A DNA stretch of 14,032 nt, from the UHGV virus genome UHGV-0332040; one strand, given 5' to 3'. The translations under genes were made by a program, and so were the position numbers. Positions 1 to 7,953 of the stretch are shown here, piece after piece. Numbering within the stretch: the first letter of the stretch is position 1; each line of letters starts with the position of its first letter. The notes below the pieces were generated by a model. The model saw nothing but the letters and a program-made list of their open reading frames with translations. It did not search any database and was not told the DNA's origin. This stretch comes from a virus.

Positions 1-1
1 A

Positions 2-415
2 TTAGTGCGCACTCATACGCGCCATGTTCAACACCTTCCGCACAGAGGTTTCAGACACGCCAACCTTACTTGCAATGTAACGATTCTTCTGGCCTTTTGC
101 AGAGCGCTCGATAATGTCAGCGCGTACTGCCTCAGTGATCACCTTGCGGGGTCTGGCTCGATTCTTCTCGTGCCGTTCACGTTCGCGCATCCGCTCGGCC
201 ATCTTCGGCGGCAGCACAGGGGAAAGCCCACGGCTAACGCCAGAGGTGCGGGTGTCGGACGTGGCAGCTCGGGCAACGATATAAACCACTTCGTCTGGAT
301 TGAAAACGTGCTGCACACGCTCAGGGTAAATGTGGTCGCATCTACCCAGCGGCAAGGCGAAATCCGGGCGCACGTCAGCGACACGCTCCACGGCATGGAA
401 ATTACAGGTACTCAT
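2..415 (-). CDS. DNA-binding protein with C-terminal helix-turn-helix (137 aa), function unknown
   Basis: Complete ORF with the stop at 2-4. A GAGG SD lies 6 nt upstream of the ATG at 415. The C-terminal segment RYIASKVGVSETSVRKVL looks like a resolvase/transposase-type HTH preceded by a basic RERERHEKNRARPRK stretch. The plus-strand ORF 5-418 is its antisense shadow. Confidence 0.6.
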   Translation of the reverse strand: MSTCNFHAVERVADVRPDFALPLGRCDHIYPERVQHVFNPDEVVYIVARAATSDTRTSGVSRGLSPVLPPKMAERMRERERHEKNRARPRKVITEAVRADIIERSAKGQKNRYIASKVGVSETSVRKVLNMARMSAH

Positions 416-554
416 TAGGAACCTCGGTTAATTAAAAACAGGCTTTTAGATGCCGCGCAGAATGCAGCTTGCGGGGACTCATGCGCTTAGATTGGTGTGG
501 TAGTACCGGGTTGGAGCGCACTCAGTCTTGCAGGGCGCATTCCACCGTTGGGCG

Positions 555-1241
555 TTAGCGACCAGCACGTTTGCCAGCGGAGCGCTGCGCAACCAGAGCG
601 CGGTATTGAATGTCGTACTGGCGATGGCCGGGGCCATACCCTGATTGCTGCGCCCACTGCGAAAGCTGATCATACGCTGCAATAAACTCAGCATGAGACA
701 TACCAACAGGTTGCGAGGCAGGCTGGCCGTATGGGTTCCCCTGTGATGGGACATAACCAGTCGCAGTGCCTGCGGCCATACGCTCTTGCAGATAATGAAC
801 CGCCCGCTGCATCTGCGCAGGGTCGCCAGACATAACCATCCGTTCAAGGGTTGATTGCGTCCCGGCGTCGAGCGTGCCAGCGTACTGCAACATCGCGTCA
901 ACTGTACCCTGCCCTAGCTGGCTTTCGACAGACTGGTGAAACTGCCCCATCAGCCCATGAAGTTCAGGAGTCAACTCAACAGTAGTGCCATCCTGTAATT
1001 GCAGTGTGTCGCCCACTTGTGCAGCAACATCAATCTGCTGGTCTTGCTGGTTGGCAAAGTTACTTTCGCTCCAGCTTTGATTAATGTTCGCTGGCTGCGT
1101 TTTCAGGAAATCAGCATCAGGTGTTGTCTGGTCGAATCGGCTAGCGCCGTTGTCAGCACCTACAGGTGCGGCCATGTACGGCGATTGCTGCGGCGCAGTA
1201 TCAGCGCCCGAAAGATATGGATTAACATTCTGGTCAGCCAT
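555..1241 (-). CDS. Hypothetical Q/N/D-rich acidic protein (228 aa)
   Basis: Long ORF in the same orientation as the operon. Its ATG lies 2 nt after the upstream stop (GCATAATCATG), and a GAGG sits about 10 nt upstream. I recognised no family motif. Confidence 0.6.
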   Translation of the reverse strand: MADQNVNPYLSGADTAPQQSPYMAAPVGADNGASRFDQTTPDADFLKTQPANINQSWSESNFANQQDQQIDVAAQVGDTLQLQDGTTVELTPELHGLMGQFHQSVESQLGQGTVDAMLQYAGTLDAGTQSTLERMVMSGDPAQMQRAVHYLQERMAAGTATGYVPSQGNPYGQPASQPVGMSHAEFIAAYDQLSQWAQQSGYGPGHRQYDIQYRALVAQRSAGKRAGR

Positions 1242-1243
1242 GA

Positions 1244-1483
1244 TTATGCAACCTCTTGTGATGTAACTCGGCGATGTGCCAGTTCAAGTAAAAGCATGTG
1301 TGCGTGTACGCAGCGTGGGGGAATCATCTTCTGACCGTGGTACGCCTTGCAGAGATCTTGTCTGTCAATTTGATACACACGAGCCAGATCGATTTGGCGT
1401 AGATTCAAGGCATCAGCAATGAATTTCAGTTGTTGCCCGCACTCCACCGCGCGGCGCGGCTCCATTAAAATGATGGTGCTCAT
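1244..1483 (-). CDS. Small HTH-like protein (79 aa)
   Basis: The start is trimmed to the ATG at 1483, which has GAGGA 7 nt upstream; the track ORF extends to 1525 without an RBS. The segment LNLRQIDLARVYQIDRQDLCKAYHG resembles an XRE/Cro-type HTH. Confidence 0.5.
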   Translation of the reverse strand: MSTIILMEPRRAVECGQQLKFIADALNLRQIDLARVYQIDRQDLCKAYHGQKMIPPRCVHAHMLLLELAHRRVTSQEVA

Positions 1484-1497
1484 GAAATAATCCTCAG

Positions 1498-1731
1498 TTA
1501 GATAAGGCCATGACGACGCAACCAACGTCGCTCGCCAACGGAGCCACGCGGTCGCTGCCTTGGGTTCTGGTTTGGTGCTTGGCCGGGATCAGTTCGTCCT
1601 TCCCCGGACAGGTTCTGTGTCAGCACATCCCAGCCGCGTGATTCAAACGGGGCGTATCCCTCGCGCTGTTCGTCAAGGTTCACATAGAGATCAGGGTTAA
1701 CGGCAGGGTGCAGCGGTTCGTTCTCTGCCAT
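1498..1731 (-). CDS. Hypothetical protein (77 aa)
   Basis: The ATG at 1731 overlaps the stop of the upstream gene (TGATG). It is co-oriented with the operon, and the next gene's SD lies in the 14-nt gap downstream. No recognisable motif. Confidence 0.45.
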   Translation of the reverse strand: MAENEPLHPAVNPDLYVNLDEQREGYAPFESRGWDVLTQNLSGEGRTDPGQAPNQNPRQRPRGSVGERRWLRRHGLI

Positions 1732-2291
1732 CACTTAGCCCCGAATCGCGTGTTAACATCTTCCAAAATATCGGGGTAGCTCCAGCGGTTACGCATCAGG
1801 CGCAGGACATGAGCAACAGCCTCAACAGAGATCCCAAGCTCTCCAGCGATCTCGGTTTGTTTCCAGCCGAAGCGCTCCAGCTTGTGCATCTGATCGAGGT
1901 CGGCGCTCAACAGGCGGCGCATCGTCTGAGGTTTCTCAGGCTTCGCTTTAACAGCTTTCGGCATCGGGTGGGTGTGGGCGTTGCTAAAGCGGGAATGTGC
2001 GATAGCCAGCACAGTCTCAGGGCGAATCAGCATATCGCGGGCAATCATAAACTCTGTATCGCGGTGCAGCTTGCCGGGCTTATAGCGGCTGCGGATGGCG
2101 TTGTACTCCGCCAGAGTGATATCAGCATCGTCTTTCCAATTTTCGGCCAAGTCATCGACATAGACGCCACGGATTACAGCATCAATATCGGTCAGGGTAT
2201 GACCTGTCTCCGCTGCAATCTCTTCATTGTTCTTTAGGTGCTTATGAGCCAGCGTGTTAATGCGCTGGATATCGGTAATGCTCAAAGTCAT
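1731..2291 (-). CDS. Putative DNA-binding protein with two HTH-like segments (186 aa)
   Basis: ATGA overlap with the upstream 58-codon ORF, and GGAG 8 nt upstream. The C-terminal WKQTEIAGELGISVEAVAHVLRL resembles a sigma-70 region 4 / LuxR-type HTH. The N-terminal NEEIAAETGHTLTDIDAVIRG is a second HTH-like stretch. Confidence 0.65.
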   Translation of the reverse strand: MTLSITDIQRINTLAHKHLKNNEEIAAETGHTLTDIDAVIRGVYVDDLAENWKDDADITLAEYNAIRSRYKPGKLHRDTEFMIARDMLIRPETVLAIAHSRFSNAHTHPMPKAVKAKPEKPQTMRRLLSADLDQMHKLERFGWKQTEIAGELGISVEAVAHVLRLMRNRWSYPDILEDVNTRFGAK

Positions 2292-2464
2292 ACATTAAAC
2301 TCCGAATCAAAATTGATCTGGTCAGTAACCAGCGAATGAATCAGCGCAAGGCTGGATGCGGTATGTGTGCCCGACTTGCGGGCGTTGTCGTACATGAAGC
2401 GGGCTACACGTTGATATTTCTCCGGCAGCGTGGCGAACCATTGCCGGAACTGTTCGGGGGTCAT
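2288..2464 (-). CDS. Small hypothetical protein (58 aa), absent from the ORF track because it is shorter than 60 aa
   Basis: Hand translation gives MTPEQFRQWFATLPEKYQRVARFMYDNARKSGTHTASSLALIHSLVTDQINFDSEFNV. It has ATGA overlaps at both ends (2461-2464 and 2288-2291). GGAGG lies about 10 nt upstream. It fills an otherwise unexplained gap in a tightly packed operon. Confidence 0.5.
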   Translation of the reverse strand: MTPEQFRQWFATLPEKYQRVARFMYDNARKSGTHTASSLALIHSLVTDQINFDSEFNV

Positions 2465-2670
2465 TGGTCGTCATCCTCCGGGAACACGTTGTTAAAGGTT
2501 GTATCAGGCGAGTCGGCGGCGTTCTGCTTGAGGAAGTTCACGCAGGATGACAACTCGGCAGCAGCCATGCGTGACTCTCCCGCCTCGTCCTCCTTAAGCC
2601 TGCGCGTCAACGCACCCAGCAGCAGGGTTTTTAGTTCCCATGCTCCGGCTTCAAATTCAGATTTCGTCAT
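2461..2670 (-). CDS. Small acidic hypothetical protein (69 aa)
   Basis: ATGA overlap with the upstream gene at 2667-2670, and GGAG about 10 nt upstream. There is a faint by-eye resemblance to small T7 gp18-like proteins (AAELSSCVNFLKQN versus PQLYNAINKLLDRH). That is not enough to name the product. Confidence 0.5.
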   Translation of the reverse strand: MTKSEFEAGAWELKTLLLGALTRRLKEDEAGESRMAAAELSSCVNFLKQNAADSPDTTFNNVFPEDDDQ

Positions 2671-3098
2671 TGGTGGTTATCTCCAGTTAGTCCCATTGCA
2701 CGCAAGTGTTGAATGACCTCGGCATGTACTGGTTTTGGTAAAAACAGGCGACGCTGCACGGATTGAAGTATCTCGTCGCGCGTCTTGTCGGCAGGGTGAA
2801 CAGTCCCATTAAAGACCTCACGAGCCATGCGATAGGTCGGCCAAAGGCGAGCGCCATCCTCCCTGCGACGGAATCTATTCAGCACAGCGGCCAGACACTC
2901 CCACGGCTCACAGTTATTGAGCAGGCAATACCGCTGTAGCGGTGTCGTTGCCCGGCGCATGATGGCTTCACGATTAAGGGTCTGAATATGACGTTCGGCC
3001 AGTCCGTCGAATGAATAGCCGTTCAAAGCAAAGGCGAGCTGCGCATTAAGCAGGGCGTCAGAACGCCCCGCACGATGCAGTGCGGTTTCATCAGGCAT
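2667..3098 (-). CDS. Hypothetical protein (143 aa)
   Basis: ORF with GGAG 8 nt upstream of the ATG at 3098. It is co-oriented with the operon and coupled to the downstream gene. No family motif recognised. Confidence 0.6.
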   Translation of the reverse strand: MPDETALHRAGRSDALLNAQLAFALNGYSFDGLAERHIQTLNREAIMRRATTPLQRYCLLNNCEPWECLAAVLNRFRRREDGARLWPTYRMAREVFNGTVHPADKTRDEILQSVQRRLFLPKPVHAEVIQHLRAMGLTGDNHQ

Positions 3099-3141
3099 AA
3101 GGATTCTCCAGAAAGGAATTTAAACAGGCGAGCTGGTCAGC

Positions 3142-5031
3142 TCAGAGGAAGCGGGAGATGTAACCCCAATTGCAGTTTTCAGGGCGGTACAACGCTGCCA
3201 GCTCATCAGGTACACCGGACGGCACCGGGGCAGAGTCGGCGTCATAGGTGATGGGGTCGCCATACAGAGCCAACGATGACCACAGCAGAAAAGCACGGGC
3301 AGGTTGACCGTCACGCCCGGCACGTCCGATCATCTGAACTAAATCGGGCAGGTCTTCGGGAACATAAGTGACAATTACGTTACGCACGCCAGAGATATCA
3401 GCCCCCAGCCCGAAGGCTTTAGTAGCAATCAGAACCGCGCCGGGCGTGCTGGCAAACCACGCAGCGTTAGCGTGACGCTGGTCGCGGCTCAGTCGCTCAA
3501 CGTCAGAATGGTAAGGCCGGGCGCGGTCTCCCAGTTCGTTGAGATACGCATACAGCATCTTGATACTGTCCACCATCACCAGCGTCTTCTCATCCAGCGG
3601 GAGGGCATCGACCAGACCAACGGCAGCCCGGCGCGTAGTTGCGCACTGCTGAACAGGAATAAGCTGGATGTTTTCACGGGCAGCACTGGCGCGGTAGGTG
3701 AGGAACTCGCCACGACAGCCAAGCTCTTTCATCAAGCCAGACTCATCACCTTTTCGCAGGGTCGCAGTAAACGCGCACCGCTGAGCATCCGGGAAGGCAT
3801 TTTTCAGGGTGTGTTTCATTGCAGGGAAAGCGTCCCGGAACTCCCATTCATCAACGGTATGAACCTCGTCAATGATAAATCTGTCCACACCAGCGGCCAT
3901 CAGCGCAGCCAGCACCTGATTGCCCGGCACCAGATGCTCAGGTGAAACTACGGCAACGTGGAAAGCGCCAGCAGCCAACCCCGCAAGCTGTTGCGCATTG
4001 CGTCGCCTCGGCAGCTTGTCGCCAAAGGCAACAGCGTGAACGCCAGTTTCTAGCAACTGCTGTAACACCTGCTGCTTGATGGTGTTTGTAGGCACAACAA
4101 TAACGGTCAGACCGTCATCAGAATCAGATTCAAATTGCAGGGCATAGGTGAATGCAGCCGTCTTTCCGTACCCGGTTGGCAGTACGGCCAATACATCGCG
4201 GTCACGGGCAAATACGGCGGCAGCTACGTCCTGCTGGCCGGGTCTCCAGTCTCTGCCATCTAGCGGTGGTAACGGTACGAATGCCGGGCGGTCGCATTGC
4301 TCCAGCTCGCGGAACCTGTACGGCGCGGTAACCAGCGGCGGGATGGACGGCGGCAGGCCAGCACCCCCAACGTCACAATGCAGATTCAGCGTATTGAATT
4401 TATCATCCGTGGGTTTCAGCTCACCGCACCACAACTGACGGAAAGCCGGGCAGTCACCCAGTCGCGTAAAGTCAGCATGGCGCATAGCTTCCAGCTTGCT
4501 CATGCCGCGACTGATACGACGCACGATCTTCTCATCGCAAATCAGAAACTCACGGCAGGCTTTGAGGAAGGCATTCTGCCCGGTTGTCGCTTCCGGGATG
4601 GAGTGCTCGCGCGGTTTAAGCGCAGCGTCATCAACGCGAACGCCGGGGAAATCTGGCGGCAGCGGCTCGGCGTACCGGGCAGGCTTTTTGTTTAGCCACA
4701 TCTCCAGCTCAGCGCGGCGGCAGTGGATTGCATCGCCCGGCTGGATAATCTGGCGCAACCCGGCATCAGCGCGGCGGGAATGTCGCTTGCGGCCAATTCC
4801 ATTCGCCTCTTTCCATTCACGGAACGACATAACTGAACCATCTGCATTGTAGAAATACTGCCCGGAAACGGTGTTAAGCGCTGCCTTCACTGGTCGCTGT
4901 TTAACAGGGCATAACTTGGAATGAGGTATAACGATCTTATCCGCAACCAGTTGCTGAGCATCCGCAGGCTCGGTGTTCAGCGGTTCGGCGTCAGCGGCCA
5001 GCGTAAGCAAGCGGTTTAAATTGGTTGGCAT
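3142..5031 (-). CDS. RecQ-family SF2 DNA helicase with an unassigned ~260-aa N-terminal domain (629 aa)
   Basis: Helicase motifs run in order: WRPGQQ (Q-motif-like), LPTGYGKT (motif I), IIDEVH (motif II, DExH) and FTATL (motif III). The end YHSD...LIATKAFGLGADISGVRNVIVTYVPEDLPDLVQMIGRAGRDG matches RecQ motifs V/VI (GRAGRDG). GGAG lies 9 nt upstream of the ATG at 5031. Confidence 0.85.
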   Translation of the reverse strand: MPTNLNRLLTLAADAEPLNTEPADAQQLVADKIVIPHSKLCPVKQRPVKAALNTVSGQYFYNADGSVMSFREWKEANGIGRKRHSRRADAGLRQIIQPGDAIHCRRAELEMWLNKKPARYAEPLPPDFPGVRVDDAALKPREHSIPEATTGQNAFLKACREFLICDEKIVRRISRGMSKLEAMRHADFTRLGDCPAFRQLWCGELKPTDDKFNTLNLHCDVGGAGLPPSIPPLVTAPYRFRELEQCDRPAFVPLPPLDGRDWRPGQQDVAAAVFARDRDVLAVLPTGYGKTAAFTYALQFESDSDDGLTVIVVPTNTIKQQVLQQLLETGVHAVAFGDKLPRRRNAQQLAGLAAGAFHVAVVSPEHLVPGNQVLAALMAAGVDRFIIDEVHTVDEWEFRDAFPAMKHTLKNAFPDAQRCAFTATLRKGDESGLMKELGCRGEFLTYRASAARENIQLIPVQQCATTRRAAVGLVDALPLDEKTLVMVDSIKMLYAYLNELGDRARPYHSDVERLSRDQRHANAAWFASTPGAVLIATKAFGLGADISGVRNVIVTYVPEDLPDLVQMIGRAGRDGQPARAFLLWSSLALYGDPITYDADSAPVPSGVPDELAALYRPENCNWGYISRFL

Positions 5032-5052
5032 GGTGCAAACTCCAGAGAAGGA

Positions 5053-5490
5053 TTAAATACTACGCGCCCAAGCTAAATCTTCGGGTGTCCGACTTTCGAT
5101 TAACGCTAACTGCCAGCGTAAGTAATCCTCATGTTCTTTGGTGTATCGGGGAATACCTATAGGATTTTTCACAGCGTCCGGGTTAGTCCTCGCGACTTCC
5201 CTGCAATCTCGGTCGAAAGCCCAGCGGGCAACTTCCACCGATTCGTAATCCGTAAATCGGTACGGCCTTGTGCGGGAACGTACACGCCAGACAACTTGCC
5301 CTAATTCGTGGATGTATATGCCGCAAAGTTCATCCGGGCTTGGGTGATACAATGGCTCCCCATAATTCTGGCGCATGAACTTCACAAACTTTTGATTGCG
5401 GCGGGCACGCCGTGCTTTTTCGCGTCGCTCCTCGGCTTCATACTCTTTTTGAATGGCGGCACGGTCTACCGGGATAAGTGTTTTGCTCAT
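5053..5490 (-). CDS. Hypothetical protein (145 aa), first gene of the helicase operon
   Basis: The start is trimmed to the ATG at 5490 (MSKTLIPVD...), which has GGAG about 8 nt upstream. The track ORF extension to 5667 runs through the iteron-like repeats and has no RBS. Basic EERREKARRARRNQK stretch; no family recognised. Confidence 0.6.
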   Translation of the reverse strand: MSKTLIPVDRAAIQKEYEAEERREKARRARRNQKFVKFMRQNYGEPLYHPSPDELCGIYIHELGQVVWRVRSRTRPYRFTDYESVEVARWAFDRDCREVARTNPDAVKNPIGIPRYTKEHEDYLRWQLALIESRTPEDLAWARSI

Positions 5491-5560
5491 ACAGTGATCT
5501 CCAGAAATTAATGTGAGTTTGGAACGGGGCGCAGGACGGAAGCGCCGGGAGTGTGGCAGT

Positions 5561-5914
5561 CTGTCCTCCTTAGTAGTTACCATCATTGCAATGGCGTCGG
5601 AGTTCTGTCTCTCTTTAGTAGTGATCTTCATCCAGTAATTTGGATTAAATGCAGACACGGCGGGCATTGCAGCGAGATGGAGAGTAGGCGGGCTTGCGGT
5701 TTCAGTCTGCCTTAGTACAAGTTTCTAGTGGTCGGTAGCCTTTCCCTTATTAGTAGCTCTCATTTATCCGGGGCTTGTCTTCCCACACAGTAGCCGTCTT
5801 CTAAAGCAACCACACCACAATCCACTACTGGCAAGGAGTTAGCAGACACGGTGATGTAGGCTACTCAAGTGTGGATTTGTAGGCGTTTTATAGTATCTGT
5901 CCTTCTTATTAGAC
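5561..5914. repeat. Array of six degenerate iteron-like repeats (plus-strand consensus about CTGTCYTCYTTAGTAG)
   Basis: Copies lie at 5561-5576, 5605-5621, 5705-5718, 5739-5756, 5774-5793 and 5897-5914, all in the same orientation. Three are spaced about 35 bp apart. A second perfect 10-mer, GCAGACACGG, occurs at 5651-5660 and 5842-5851. Confidence 0.6.
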
Positions 5915-5980
5915 ACCTTTAAATTTCATTAATAAATACAGTTAGTTAAACGGTTATCTTTATTACTTATAAATTTCACA

Positions 5981-6002
5981 GATCAATAAATTAAAATTGA
6001 TC
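5981..6002. repeat. Perfect 7-bp inverted repeat carrying two GATC sites (GATCAAT-N8-ATTGATC) inside an AT-rich block
   Basis: Read directly from the sequence. The surrounding region, about 5915-6050, is strongly AT-rich by eye. Confidence 0.7.
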
Positions 6003-6015
6003 GGAATTATCAGCT

Positions 6016-6044
6016 TTAATTTTCTTGACAGCTATTTGTATAAT
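6016..6044 (+). promoter_or_regulatory. Candidate sigma-70 promoter (perfect -10 TATAAT at 6039-6044, weak -35 TTAATT at 6016-6021)
   Basis: The TATAAT is preceded by TG at 6037-6038 in an AT-rich context. The TTGACA at 6025-6030 is only 8 bp from the -10, so it cannot be its -35. No plus-strand ORF lies downstream. Confidence 0.3.
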
Positions 6045-6050
6045 GGTTTT

Positions 6051-6190
6051 AAGAAGTTGTATCGGAGTGAGCGACTGGCAGTGAGCGTAGCGAACGATAA
6101 GCCAGTCGGCGAAGAACGAAGAGTATGAGATGACTTGTCATCGAATACGATGAGTGATTGAGCGGTACGAACGGAGATACGCTGTATAAC
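6051..6190 (+). ncRNA. Candidate structured purine-rich RNA downstream of the TATAAT promoter
   Basis: Stop-rich, with no ORF on either strand apart from the low-complexity 64-aa track ORF on the minus strand. There is an 8-bp perfect stem CGACTGGC/GCCAGTCG (6072-6079 / 6101-6108). There is a near-palindromic hairpin at 6123-6148 and a possible closing helix GTATC/GATAC (6059-6063 / 6176-6180). The motifs GAGTGAGCG and CGAACGA repeat. Ends and strand are not established. Confidence 0.3.
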
Positions 6191-6222
6191 AGTTAGAACA
6201 GTTAACAAGCTGATTAATGCTT

Positions 6223-6387
6223 TCAATGATTATCTGAATCAGTGTTATCAATTCCGAAATAACTCTTCCTCTCCTGTATTGATTCAATCATTTCTTTCAT
6301 TTCAAGAATCACTACCAGCTCAGCTAATAACCGTCTCAGTTCAACATTTGAATCATTAGCACGACACTTATTTTCTGAGTATTCCAT
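6223..6387 (-). CDS. Small charged helical protein (54 aa), below the ORF-track cutoff
   Basis: Hand translation gives MEYSENKCRANDSNVELRRLLAELVVILEMKEMIESIQERKSYFGIDNTDSDNH. GGGAG lies 8 nt upstream of the ATG at 6387. A candidate promoter lies upstream. The gene is AT-rich, moron-like in composition. Confidence 0.45.
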   Translation of the reverse strand: MEYSENKCRANDSNVELRRLLAELVVILEMKEMIESIQERKSYFGIDNTDSDNH

Positions 6388-6432
6388 ACGGTCAACTCCC
6401 TACGGTATAAGTCCATTCCAATCCGTTCACAG

Positions 6433-6460
6433 ATTACATTGCTGAATGATCATCAGACAA
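6433..6460 (-). promoter_or_regulatory. Candidate sigma-70 promoter for the 54-codon ORF (TTGTCT-16 nt-TGTAAT) with a GATC-centred near-palindrome in the spacer
   Basis: On the minus strand the -35 is TTGTCT (6455-6460) and the -10 is TGTAAT (6433-6438). The spacer overlaps the near-palindrome CTGAATGATCATCAG (6442-6456). The motif GTGAACGGATTG (6419-6430) sits at the predicted transcription start. Confidence 0.35.
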
Positions 6461-6479
6461 GTGGCAGTCATCATCACCA

Positions 6480-6920
6480 AGTTAGAGTCGTCTCGCTACA
6501 TATCCCCGCCGGATTGCCAGCGCGGCTAACACGGTTGTGAGGAGCGCCGAGCATCACAGCGGACGCAGGCCGATGAACGAGCCGTAGGTGAGTGAAAGCG
6601 GACTCGCGGACGCGAGAAGCGCAGCAGCAGGCGGCGACTGATAAACGAGCCAGACAGGTGAGTGCAAGCAGGCGTAAGCACTGCACCGTTGAGAGGTGTG
6701 GAGACGGCGGAACGTCTCCGCGTTAGGGAGGTGGATTTGGGGAGGATGTGCAAGGCACACCTCGCTCCACCCACGGGGTGTCGGTGGGTAGGGGTATAAC
6801 GCTAATTGGTTAAGTGTACACATGTACGCTGAAATCATTAAAAGCCTATAGAAACAGCATGTAACCCAGCACCACGACATAACCAATTATCGTTGAACCC
6901 CCTCCCCGGCCCCACCCGGA
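6480..6920. ncRNA. Candidate large structured non-coding element (GC- and purine-rich on the plus strand)
   Basis: There is no credible ORF; the three minus-strand frames are open only because that strand is pyrimidine-rich. Five strong hairpins lie at 6603-6616, 6657-6687, 6700-6719, 6742-6763 and 6769-6789. Two ~30-nt degenerate repeat units lie 68 nt apart (6572-6601 and 6640-6672). G-runs at 6726-6745 and 6775-6794 face a C-run at 6898-6919. AT-rich sequence flanks the island. Confidence 0.3.
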
Positions 6921-7089
6921 ATTTTTCAGTGATGAATCACTTCACAATCTGATCTCGATGTTCATCGTCTGGCACGGCTAAAGCCCCGCCATCTCTTCAC
7001 ATCGAGAGCCGCAAGTAATACGAAAATACATTATAAATCATAGCATTACGACATCGCGCATAACATAACGCTCTGAAATTAATACGAAA

Positions 7090-7207
7090 GCTGTAGGTCA
7101 TCCATCACCCACAGCCCAGTAACGGCCAGTGCTGGCACCTCATTTGGCTGTAGGTCAGCCCGACCCCACCGCCCAATAACCCCACCCGGCAGCAATGGCA
7201 CGGCACC
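7090..7207. repeat. Tandem pair of ~50-60 bp degenerate direct repeats starting GCTGTAGGTCA
   Basis: Unit 1 is 7090-7139 and unit 2 is 7147-7207. Both begin GCTGTAGGTCA and end ...GGCACC. TAATACGAAA is duplicated just upstream at 7016-7025 and 7080-7089. Confidence 0.65.
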
Positions 7208-7329
7208 AGACGCAGCGTAACGATCTCTGAGTTGATAAATCACTTAGGGCAGCGTAACCCACACCCAACGGCTCACATCCTCGCAGAGAGGCTCACAGAT
7301 CACCTCGTGACATTTCACAGCATCAACCC

Positions 7330-7953
7330 TCAGACGCTGGCAGCCAGCTCACGCTTAATGCGGTAGAACGTTGCCCGGCTTATCCCGGCAGCTTTCATGA
7401 TGCGCTCCGGTTTCACACCCTGCGCCAGCATTTCCCTGACGGTCTCGCGAGCGGCGGCATCCTTCTGACTCCCACGATAAAGCCCCTCAGCTTTGGCTCG
7501 TTCAATGCCCTGCCGCTGGCGCATCAGTCGCGTCTCGTAGTCCACGCGGGCCATTGTAGCGAGGATATCGATCAGCATTGCGTTAACGGCTCTGAGGATG
7601 CCGCTGGTTAGCTCTGACGCGGTTTCGTTCAGCAACTGCCACGAGGTTGGCAGGTCAACGGCGACGATCACCAGCCCCTTATCCTGAATCCTCTGTTTCA
7701 GTGTCGCCCATTCCTTTTGTGTCAGGCGGCTTAGCCTGTCTATGCTTTCGACAAGTAGAACGTCGCCAGCCTCCGCCTCACCCAGCAGGCGCATCAGTTC
7801 AGGACGCTCCAGCCGCGCACCGCTGGCGTTCTCGATGTATCGCGCAGCAATAGACCAACCACGCTCATTAGCGAAATCCTCCAGCGCAGGAACGGCACGG
7901 TCGGCGTGTTGCTCGGCGGTGGATGCCCTGGCATACAGACGAACGTTATTCAT
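7330..7953 (-). CDS. Small serine recombinase (resolvase/invertase family, 207 aa)
   Basis: The N-terminal RLYARASTAEQ carries the catalytic-serine motif. VLLVESIDRLSRL is the resolvase core motif. ISRATFYRIKRE is the C-terminal HTH. GGAGGG lies 6 nt upstream of the ATG at 7953. Confidence 0.9.
   Translation of the reverse strand: MNNVRLYARASTAEQHADRAVPALEDFANERGWSIAARYIENASGARLERPELMRLLGEAEAGDVLLVESIDRLSRLTQKEWATLKQRIQDKGLVIVAVDLPTSWQLLNETASELTSGILRAVNAMLIDILATMARVDYETRLMRQRQGIERAKAEGLYRGSQKDAAARETVREMLAQGVKPERIMKAAGISRATFYRIKRELAASV

Follow-up and report, generated by a model that had tools for sequence, protein, structure and literature searches.

The window analyzed here, the whole 14,032-nucleotide (nt) stretch of virus genome UHGV-0332040, is identical to part of the chromosome of Escherichia coli strain 5735. 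Between a gene for a small serine recombinase and a gene for a 145-amino-acid (aa) protein it holds ~1.8 kb (positions 5491 to 7329) with almost no coding capacity, and a gene for a RecQ-family helicase follows. This report concerns the part of that noncoding DNA nearest the helicase operon, positions 5561 to 6050, where an array of short repeats adjoins an AT-rich block that contains a perfect palindrome (Table 1). The operon is transcribed from the minus strand, so the repeats are given below both as plus-strand sequence and in gene sense.

Repeats, AT-rich block, and palindrome upstream of the helicase operon

A sequence-only reading of this DNA had described six same-orientation copies of a motif of about 16 bp. 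The array is real and runs in one direction but is looser than that description: between 5561 and 5912, four copies of CTGTCYTCYTTAGTAG (gene-sense CTACTAAGGAGGACAG) are solid and two are weaker, and there are probably more half-sites than had been counted. An ungapped search for the 16-mer allowing up to 3 mismatches returned three matches in the 14 kb, at 5561 (no mismatch), 5703 (3 mismatches), and 5897 (2 mismatches), all on the plus strand; 0.20 matches were expected, and none of 200 shuffled sequences reached three. The copies at 5605 (CTGTCTCTCTTTAGTAG) and 5741 (TTTCCCTTATTAGTAG) require an indel or a looser match, and copy 5 was missed both by this consensus scan and by the matrix scan described below. 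Plus-strand GTAG (gene-sense CTAC) has 8 of its 39 occurrences in the window within 5550 to 5900 (binomial p = 5e-6), compared to 2 in the opposite orientation, and TTAGTA is found six times in the window, four times at 5570 to 5750, all on the plus strand. Start-to-start distances between successive copies are irregular (44, 98, 38, 33 to 34, and 122 to 123 bp); the three copies said to lie about 35 bp apart are those at 5703, 5741, and 5774 or 5775. A repeated 10-mer had also been listed with the array. It is indeed present twice on the plus strand, 191 bp apart (GCAGACACGG, 5651 to 5660 and 5842 to 5851), but by our arithmetic chance alone would give ~0.4 such pairs per 900 bp. None of the five loci first examined has an exact copy; variants stand there instead (L008 and L015 were later found to keep the first copy), and we consider the repetition to be probably due to chance and place it outside the feature.

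Sixteen related loci, cited by L numbers where needed, were collected for comparison. Copy 6, at the edge of the AT-rich block, is the best conserved (mean identity, 0.92), and its equivalent in L006 reads CTACTAATAAGGAGGACAG. Copy 1 is kept in L002, L003, L004, and L008 and is deleted in L005 and L006, copy 2 keeps CTA...ACAG constant around a variable middle (CTACAGTAGAGAAACAG, CTATATGGGAGAGACAG), and copy 3 is degenerate in L002 to L005. At copy 4, L002 to L005 retain TTAGTAG, and the form GCTACTAATAAGGAG appears again in the diverged loci L006, L007, L014, and L016; forms resembling copy 5 (CTACTGTGGGAAGAC) occur in L008, L013, L014, and L015. The 145-aa open reading frame (ORF) can be extended in frame to 204 aa (5053 to 5667), which would read copies 1 and 2 as TTKER and TTKED; we rejected the extension as coding because L005 and L006 have large indels there, RefSeq places the start at 5490, and half of the family lacks the gene.

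The AT-rich stretch noted beside the array proved more striking than first described, since nowhere in the 14 kb is GC lower: the lowest-GC segments of 100 and 150 bp start at 5871 to 5961 (20 to 25% GC). It carries a direct repeat, (T/A)TAAATTTCA, at 5915 to 5938 and 5965 to 5988, and is 83 to 94% conserved among eight relatives; other types of module have a different AT-rich block in the same place. The palindrome GATCAAT-N8-ATTGATC is where it had been reported. It is identical in L002 to L005, and both GATCAAT arms are present in L008 and L015; L006, L016, and L007 carry another palindrome (AGCGATA-N2-TATCACT) in the equivalent position. No exact match to the window palindrome was found in IMG/VR. 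The TTGACA and TATAAT hexamers nearby do not form a canonical sigma-70 promoter because of the short gap between them. A scan of the gene-sense strand from 5300 to 7400 found no promoter site scoring at least 9/12, and thus the operon promoter was not located. We also considered an invertible promoter segment between 5996 to 6016 and 6207 to 6227, near the invertase-like recombinase; it is unsupported, as 14 of 14 relatives have the same orientation.

Table 1 Features of the repeat region and its neighboring genes, in positions of the window
Feature	Position	Strand	Remarks
Helicase, 629 aa	3142-5031	-	RecQ-family superfamily 2 (SF2) core, residues 260-586; Pfam DEAD + Helicase_C
145-aa protein, family unassigned	5053-5490	-	First gene downstream of the array
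Repeat copy 1	5561-5576	-	Plus strand CTGTCCTCCTTAGTAG; gene-sense CTACTAAGGAGGACAG; exact to consensus
Repeat copy 2	5605-5621	-	Plus strand CTGTCTCTCTTTAGTAG, consensus plus 1 base; gene-sense CTACTAAAGAGAGACAG
Four extra gene-sense (G/C)CTAC half-sites	5684-5882	-	Plus-strand GTAG at 5684, 5735, 5856, and 5879
Repeat copy 3	5703-5718	-	Plus strand CAGTCTGCCTTAGTAC; gene-sense GTACTAAGGCAGACTG; 3 mismatches
Repeat copy 4	5741-5756	-	Plus strand TTTCCCTTATTAGTAG; gene-sense CTACTAATAAGGGAAA
Repeat copy 5 (weak)	5774-5793	-	Plus strand CTTGTCTTCCCACACAGTAG; gene-sense CTACTGTGTGGGAAGACAAG
AT-rich block	5891-6050		Lowest-GC segment of the window, 20-25% GC
Repeat copy 6	5897-5912	-	Plus strand CTGTCCTTCTTATTAG; gene-sense CTAATAAGAAGGACAG; 2 mismatches; at AT-rich block edge
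Perfect palindrome GATCAAT-AAATTAAA-ATTGATC	5981-6002		Two Dam (GATC) sites
TTGACA + TATAAT hexamers	6025-6044	+	Separated by only 8 bp
Conserved block, purine-rich on the plus strand	6046-6210	+	Hairpins at ~6071-6108 and GATGAC-TT-GTCATC
Small serine recombinase	7330-7953		Resolvase + HTH_7; PHROG DNA invertase

The array in related islands

L011, L017, and L018 form the most distant clade and supply the strongest evidence for the array. Their helicases are 46 to 47% identical to that of the window, and their upstream DNA cannot be aligned to it (no blastn match to the noncoding blocks of the window). Upstream of the same operon, these distant relatives carry 9 to 11 regular copies of ATACTAAGGAGGGTATAAC, so that the array, whose conservation and copy number the sequence-only reading had made its yardstick, is family-wide. 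L011 has 11 copies and L017 has 9 copies of (C/T)ATACTAAGGNGAGTATAAC, all in the same orientation and 32 to 41 bp apart with one larger gap each. A weight matrix was built solely from these 20 copies and used to scan both strands of the window (~28,000 positions). Copies 4 (10.6 bits), 2 (9.5 bits), 3 (8.9 bits), and 1 (8.8 bits) came out at ranks 2 to 5, all in gene sense. Of 47 matches to the matrix across 15 loci, 23 fell in the sense strand of the 480 nt preceding the operon, a density 48-fold that found elsewhere (p = 5e-27, a value that overstates independence because the loci are related). That a matrix from the distant clade recovers the window copies, and that matches crowd the sense strand across the 15 loci, indicates from sequence comparison that the repeat family is probably an ancestral and maintained feature of these islands. 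Motif variants shift together within an element, as in L018 and L012, which have ACTATGG/ACTAGGG forms; such element-wise change would fit a co-evolving pair of protein and site.

All 16 loci share one layout, in which a serine recombinase gene is followed by 1 to 1.9 kb of mostly noncoding DNA and then by the helicase operon. By blastn of the noncoding DNA, 6899 to 7157 and 6484 to 6626 are conserved in nearly all closer relatives, and the 5491-to-6340 block is common only to L002 to L005, L008, and L015. L006, L007, L014, and L016 have an alternative module with its own AT-rich block, palindrome, and repeats, GCTACTAATAAGGAG and CTACTAAGGAGAA, whose order and approximate distances from the operon start resemble those of the window repeats; repeat order and approximate position are thus shared between modules whose surrounding DNA fails blastn alignment. 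In L006 the helicase N terminus is 95% identical to that of the window, yet the AT-rich/palindrome module is a different one. Judged from these comparisons, 5491 to 6340 appears to behave as an exchangeable control module.

In L011, the array lies between pRha and HNH genes, and the nearest upstream intergenic position for a promoter is ~650 nt away, an arrangement that would fit an origin better than a set of promoter operators. The gene for the pRha-family regulator (3938 to 4860 in L011) occupies the place where the AT-rich block would be, and the called ORF enters the first four repeats; L017 has kept the array and not the pRha gene. Outside the family we found no counterpart among the records searched: blastn searches of 50,697 phage records with 5400 to 6300, with 6300 to 7330, and with the L017 array gave no match, nor did a search of plasmids with that array. 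When IMG/VR was scanned for three phased copies of ACTAAG(G), 57 loci came back, all of them unrelated tandem repeats; most of their periods are multiples of three, so they are probably coding.

What the array may do

The sequence-only reading had noted a Shine-Dalgarno (SD)-like AAGGAGG within the gene-sense motif and had allowed for an RNA-level role, such as titration of ribosomes or of a protein. The leader repeats would then capture 30S subunits as SD-like decoys or, as a sponge, take up an RNA-binding protein such as CsrA through AAGGA in small hairpin loops; the effect would be to adjust how the operon mRNA is translated or how stable it is, or to titrate a host factor. It accords with such a role that every copy at all loci is in the transcribed orientation, that copy 1 (UAAGGAGG) is a perfect SD, that the L017 copies (AUAC-UAAGGAGG-GUAU) place AAGGA in a loop closed by a 4-bp stem, and that the sense strand of the leader is richer in C than in G (GC skew). 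The observation that no start codon stands behind the repeats was also borne out, there being no ATG, GTG, or TTG at the right distance (5 to 9 nt downstream) after any copy, which suits a decoy and departs from a genuine SD site. The heptamer, however, is found only in copy 1, where L002, L004, and L008 have AAGAAGG, and at other copies relatives have GTAGAGAAA, TATGGGAGAG, or CCGCTGCAAG while the flanking CTAC and ACAG persist. What stays invariant is not GGAGG but CTAC...ACAG in the window and ACTAAG...AAC in the distant clade; in L011, GGA is present in only about half of the copies and ACTAAG and AAC are near invariant, and L018 and L012 have UAUGG/UAGGG. The sense leader (5491 to 5920) folds worse than its shuffles (z = +1.37). 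Rfam returned nothing in the whole window at the gathering threshold or in 5400 to 7400 at E values up to 1, and a tRNA search of the window found none.

With GGA missing from some repeats, an unstructured leader, and no Rfam match, the region does not resemble a titrating RNA of the CsrB/RsmZ type, nor does it resemble the antisense RNAs P4 CI and P1 C4, since the conserved hairpin farther upstream (6505 to 6563) shows no complementarity to the leader beyond that of shuffles and no consistent target. Moreover, a fixed partner, whether the tail of 16S rRNA or a GGA-reading CsrA, does not explain the element-specific variants, which a co-evolving protein-DNA pair does. Because the SD-like core is unconserved, the copies are not followed by start codons, and no structure shows in the leader RNA, we consider a ribosome or RNA role unlikely, give the decoy or sponge very little probability, and treat the repeats as probable DNA sites.

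Taken as DNA, 5561 to 6050 would act in cis as a site of protein binding in an integrative, satellite-like island. Its putative sites are 16 to 20 bp long and in the same orientation (gene-sense CTACT-purine run-ACAG, or ACTAAGG-N8-AAC in the distant relatives), and they adjoin what is predicted to be the most easily melted segment of the island, inside which the palindrome would be an operator-like site. The reading that we favor, with somewhat less than even confidence, is that the array and the AT-rich block form a putative iteron-type origin with coupled control of the operon. The region would be the island's vegetative replication origin; a putative island-encoded protein would coat the repeats and help to open the AT-rich block, and the RecQ-family helicase encoded downstream, or host or helper enzymes, would enter there. 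Because its sites come after the AT-rich, promoter-like block and before the first gene, the same binding would probably also throttle the helicase operon, much as the iterons that precede the rep gene of P1, F, and pSC101 do both jobs, origin and autoregulation. The repeats, their orientation bias, their conservation across the family, the AT-rich minimum, and the palindrome are observed; protein binding, origin function, and autoregulation are all three steps that we infer from the arrangement.

The organization had been called classic for an origin, and most of that description holds: the repeats run in one direction, the AT-rich block is there, and both lie upstream of a helicase operon, but no initiator family was detected. 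Iterons together with an AT-rich region are generally taken to mark satellite and plasmid origins (PMC7145576), and at this locus there are at least three same-orientation repeats within the 15-to-22-bp size range and an adjacent AT-rich region. The order of AT-rich minimum, one-directional repeats, and replication-type gene is, by analogy, the layout of iteron origins. Spacing is irregular in the window and mostly 33 to 41 bp in L011 and L017, whose arrays of 9 to 11 copies have a textbook-regular iteron layout that, again by analogy, favors an origin. The combination of small serine recombinase, long cis region, and helicase operon resembles a plasmid replicon with its multimer-resolution system; F and other plasmids are replicons with such systems. 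The 145-aa protein, which had been proposed as a binder of the repeats, does not suit that part: its gene is missing from L004, L005, L008, and L012 to L016, about half of the family, and because these include loci that keep the repeats, the protein would not be the general binder.

A number of results weigh against an origin. Scans of 14 neighboring ORFs detected no Rep, primase, replicative helicase, or other family of initiators, and to our knowledge a RecQ-like helicase is neither a known initiator nor a replicative type; the model of the helicase N terminus (predicted local distance difference test [pLDDT] score below 50) is too poor for a DNA-binding fold to be read from it. DnaA boxes (TTWTNCACA, up to 1 mismatch) are as frequent in the window as expected (19 versus 19.4) and absent from 5561 to 6002, and the AT-rich block has no strict site for integration host factor (IHF; WATCAANNNNTTR). 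In addition to the irregular spacing of the window copies, motif columns are conserved no better than spacers among eight close relatives (0.738 versus 0.736), and L002, L005, L010, L013, and L014 have no matrix match of at least 7 bits in the region. L011 and L017, with their regular arrays, have no sharp AT-rich block alongside. The module in L008 (5163 to 5994) is 93% identical to window 5491 to 6340 although the helicases are 70% identical, as expected if modules are exchanged independently of the helicase, and the helicase N terminus follows the presence of the 145-aa gene and not the module type. Finally, a second repeat cluster nearer the recombinase (6786 to 6906; five copies in L017) is an alternative candidate for the origin. 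A more specific version, in which the RecQ-family SF2 helicase with its novel ~255-residue N-terminal domain, or a small partner, is the origin-recognizing initiator of a new kind of satellite replicon in islands of Enterobacteriaceae that encode capsid and scaffold proteins, seems to us doubtful; that the serine recombinase and the conserved RNA or single-stranded DNA hairpin at 6505 to 6563 would share in replication control at such a hub is, in our view, likewise rather improbable.

Several of these points would be accommodated if the region were a transcriptional control array only. The AT-rich block would then hold the promoter of the helicase operon, the region would have no origin function, the palindrome would be the operator of a dimeric repressor, and the repeats in the ~400-nt leader would bind an island or helper repressor or activator, turning the operon on after helper infection, like the P2 Cox boxes at P4 PLL. 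Such an array is a close rival to the origin, if on balance unlikely to be the whole account, and origin and operator are not mutually exclusive. In its favor, the operon's first gene always has the array directly ahead of it, the scans detected no initiator gene, and the exchange of modules independently of the helicase fits a regulatory cassette. Weak -35/-10 candidates can be read in the AT-rich block, one of them overlapped by copy 6, and a different palindrome at the same position in the other module has the look of an immunity-type swap of specificity. The palindrome itself, perfect and conserved, would suit a dimeric repressor; on the other side, neither a gene-sense promoter of at least 9/12 nor a divergent or adjacent repressor gene was identified, the L011 array sits between two genes far from an intergenic promoter, and operators seldom come as 9 to 11 sites at 33-bp intervals, an arrangement typical of iterons or centromeres.

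Two further uses of the DNA have much less to recommend them. The island encodes a head protein, a scaffold-like protein, and HNH, has no recognized terminase, and so needs a packaging site somewhere; repeat arrays are known from cosB and pac sites, and a 68-aa protein in L015 has a weak match to DNA_Packaging_2. A pac- or cosB-like signal bound by a small terminase or an HNH-associated packaging protein is nevertheless very unlikely here, as the array lies ~5 kb from the capsid and HNH genes, beside the helicase operon, and neither 5400 to 7330 nor the L017 array has the similarity to phage records that a helper-matched cos site should show. Least probable of all, we think, is that the window copies have no present function and are what is left, in decay, of an ancestral array that only the L011/L017 clade has kept intact. 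Their degeneracy, irregular spacing, lack of conservation above that of the spacers, and failure to match the matrix in several relatives are what decay would leave; enrichment and orientation bias are still strong, however, similar order and roughly similar positions recur in modules that are otherwise unalignable, and the 5491-to-6340 block in L008 has stayed far closer to the window than the helicase has.

The putative origin can be compared with several known systems. Like P1 (oriR/incC), F (oriS), and pSC101, the region combines an AT-rich region, same-orientation sites (~19 to 22 bp in those plasmids), and a replication gene, with autoregulation in the plasmids; theirs, however, have tight ~21-to-22-bp spacing, DnaA boxes, and a winged-helix Rep initiator, whereas the window has spacing of 34 to 122 bp (33 to 41 bp in L011 and L017), no excess of DnaA boxes, and a RecQ-family helicase. 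Phage-inducible chromosomal islands (PICIs), including the Staphylococcus aureus pathogenicity islands (SaPIs), and the PICI-like elements (PLEs) with RepA are satellites whose origins have repeats by an AT-rich region near their own replication gene, and such repeats are bound by a satellite initiator (PMC7145576). SaPI repeats are short, flank the AT-rich region on both sides, and lie downstream of rep, whereas the window array is one-sided and upstream of the helicase operon (some sister modules have CTGTC clusters on the far side of the AT-rich block); PLE uses a RepA_N initiator, and here no initiator family was detected. P4, with its ori and crr, is likewise an enterobacterial satellite at tRNA genes, with a helicase protein in a long same-strand operon and a long regulatory leader. 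The difference is that our scans detected no primase or SF3 helicase, no match to sid, psu, or delta among the genes scanned, and no CI/C4-type RNA in Rfam; the helicase is of the RecQ family, and the P4 type I iteron octamer TGTTCACC lies outside the region, at 2795, 9494, and 9720 only. Three octamers in the window compare with 0.38 expected, and 1 of 200 shuffles reaches three; two of them are inverted, 226 bp apart, in the cargo region to the right of a DUF1643 gene. The P2 Cox boxes at P4 PLL are also one-directional short sites upstream of a satellite replication operon, bound by a small DNA-binding protein, but they are 9 bp long with ~10.5-bp phasing; here the sites are 16 to 20 bp, spaced by at least 33 bp, and no Cox/AlpA homologue was detected.

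Since the phage, plasmid, and Rfam comparisons gave no match and literature searches returned no description of the motif or the island family, both appear to be new, although the design of origin or regulatory region is already known; the architecture is well supported yet of an ordinary-looking cis-regulatory or origin type. If it is an origin or master control site, the region would offer a handle on apparently undescribed satellite-like islands in Escherichia, Enterobacter, Citrobacter, Cronobacter, and Kosakonia, which lie near tRNA genes, bring head and scaffold genes of their own, and have variable cargo that may be related to defense. It would define the cis element for replicating mini-islands and for finding the helper signal, and it would permit a test of a RecQ-type helicase in origin-specific initiation.

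The island, its genes, and other cis elements

The island is ~12 to 16 kb long and adjoins a tRNA gene (tRNA-Gly, tRNA-Thr, or tRNA-Leu in different hosts); nearly all of its genes are on the minus strand of the window. It is rare, being present in 5 of 5,426 complete E. coli genomes, and homologues of its helicase are found in Escherichia, Enterobacter, Citrobacter, Cronobacter, and Kosakonia. Downstream of the helicase gene are genes for several small proteins, two of them with weak helix-turn-helix signals, and then for a scaffold-like protein; beyond the window follow a major head protein, an HNH endonuclease, an endonuclease VII-like protein, and a tyrosine integrase. In all, the island genes span positions 1 to 7953 of the window plus 2507 to 6403 of L001. 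Described satellites are recognized by hallmark sets, int-psu-delta-sid-alpha for P4-like elements and int-alpA-pri for PICIs, to which capsid-forming PICIs (cfPICIs) add portal, protease, TerS, and TerL (PMC13612085). No match to portal, terminase, tail, alpA, primase, sid, or psu was found among the genes scanned, so the island looks like a phage satellite by its gene content but would lie outside the P4-like, PICI, and cfPICI hallmark sets (PMC13612085).

The best PDB matches of the helicase are RecQ and WRN, and they span residues 260 to 586 only; its NCBIfam recQ_fam score is under the cutoff. The N-terminal region of ~255 residues has no family match, and an AlphaFold2 model made from a 17-sequence alignment has a mean pLDDT of 56.6, with an N terminus too poor for recognition of a DNA-binding fold. 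The 145-aa protein has no match in Pfam, PHROG, NCBIfam, or PDB, and a scan of genome contigs with it gave a single locus. Residues 1 to 120 of the helicase come in two types: one, 95 to 100% identical to the window, is found in the window, L002, and L006, all of which have the 145-aa gene, and the other, 54 to 70% identical, is found in loci without it. L010, with an N terminus 64% identical, has a different gene, for a 115-aa protein, in place of the 145-aa gene. That the N-terminal type tracks the presence of the 145-aa gene hints at a possible interaction between the two proteins. The sole annotated gene within the 1.8-kb gap is a 54-aa ORF (MEYSENKC...; 6223 to 6387, minus strand) with no family match. 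It differs by one substitution in L015; L004 and L008 have a 50-aa variant with a similar C-terminal half, and L005 has a longer ORF with the same ending.

Next to the AT-rich block, the conserved block at 6046 to 6210 is 93 to 98% identical in four E. coli relatives, and L004 has one compensatory double change there (CGACTGGC/GCCAGTCG to CGATTGGC/GCCAATCG); the plus strand from 6046 to 6300 folds no better than its shuffles (z = -0.26). Farther upstream, the hairpin at 6505 to 6563 on the minus strand, within 6484 to 6626, consists of two helices over ~60 nt and is conserved in 12 loci, with 94.7% of alignment cells paired and compensatory changes at four pairs (13 cells). Its covariation score is 0.250, compared to 0.139 in shuffles (none of 500 reached it), and slid controls reached at most 0.075. 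The CG-to-UG changes make the hairpin strand specific; Rfam has no match to it, and we regard it as a candidate signal acting in cis as RNA or single-stranded DNA. Pairing of this hairpin with the leader repeats, in the manner of P4 CI or P1 C4, was rejected: duplex energies are within ~1 to 2 standard deviations of shuffles, and the targets are inconsistent.

Downstream of the serine recombinase gene lies a 30-nt inverted repeat (6786 to 6815 and 6877 to 6906), 80% complementary and separated by a 61-bp AT-rich spacer. By eye, its core (GGGGT..GCTAAT..TTA) is like a 26-bp unit of L017 (3287 to 3535) and L018 (1696 to 1954), each of which has three direct and two inverted copies; the 6786-to-6906 cluster is a candidate second cis site, either res-like or an alternative origin. 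The ~260-bp noncoding block at 6899 to 7157 is 76 to 99% conserved in 13 relatives of the closer clade; in most loci it meets the stop codon of the recombinase gene, and in the window 172 bp of extra sequence lies between them. In E. coli 5735, identical copies of a DUF4145 gene plus a 545-aa integrase gene flank the island (L001, 1 to 2256 and 19001 to 21269), which suggests tandem or nested islands at tRNA-Gly in this strain.

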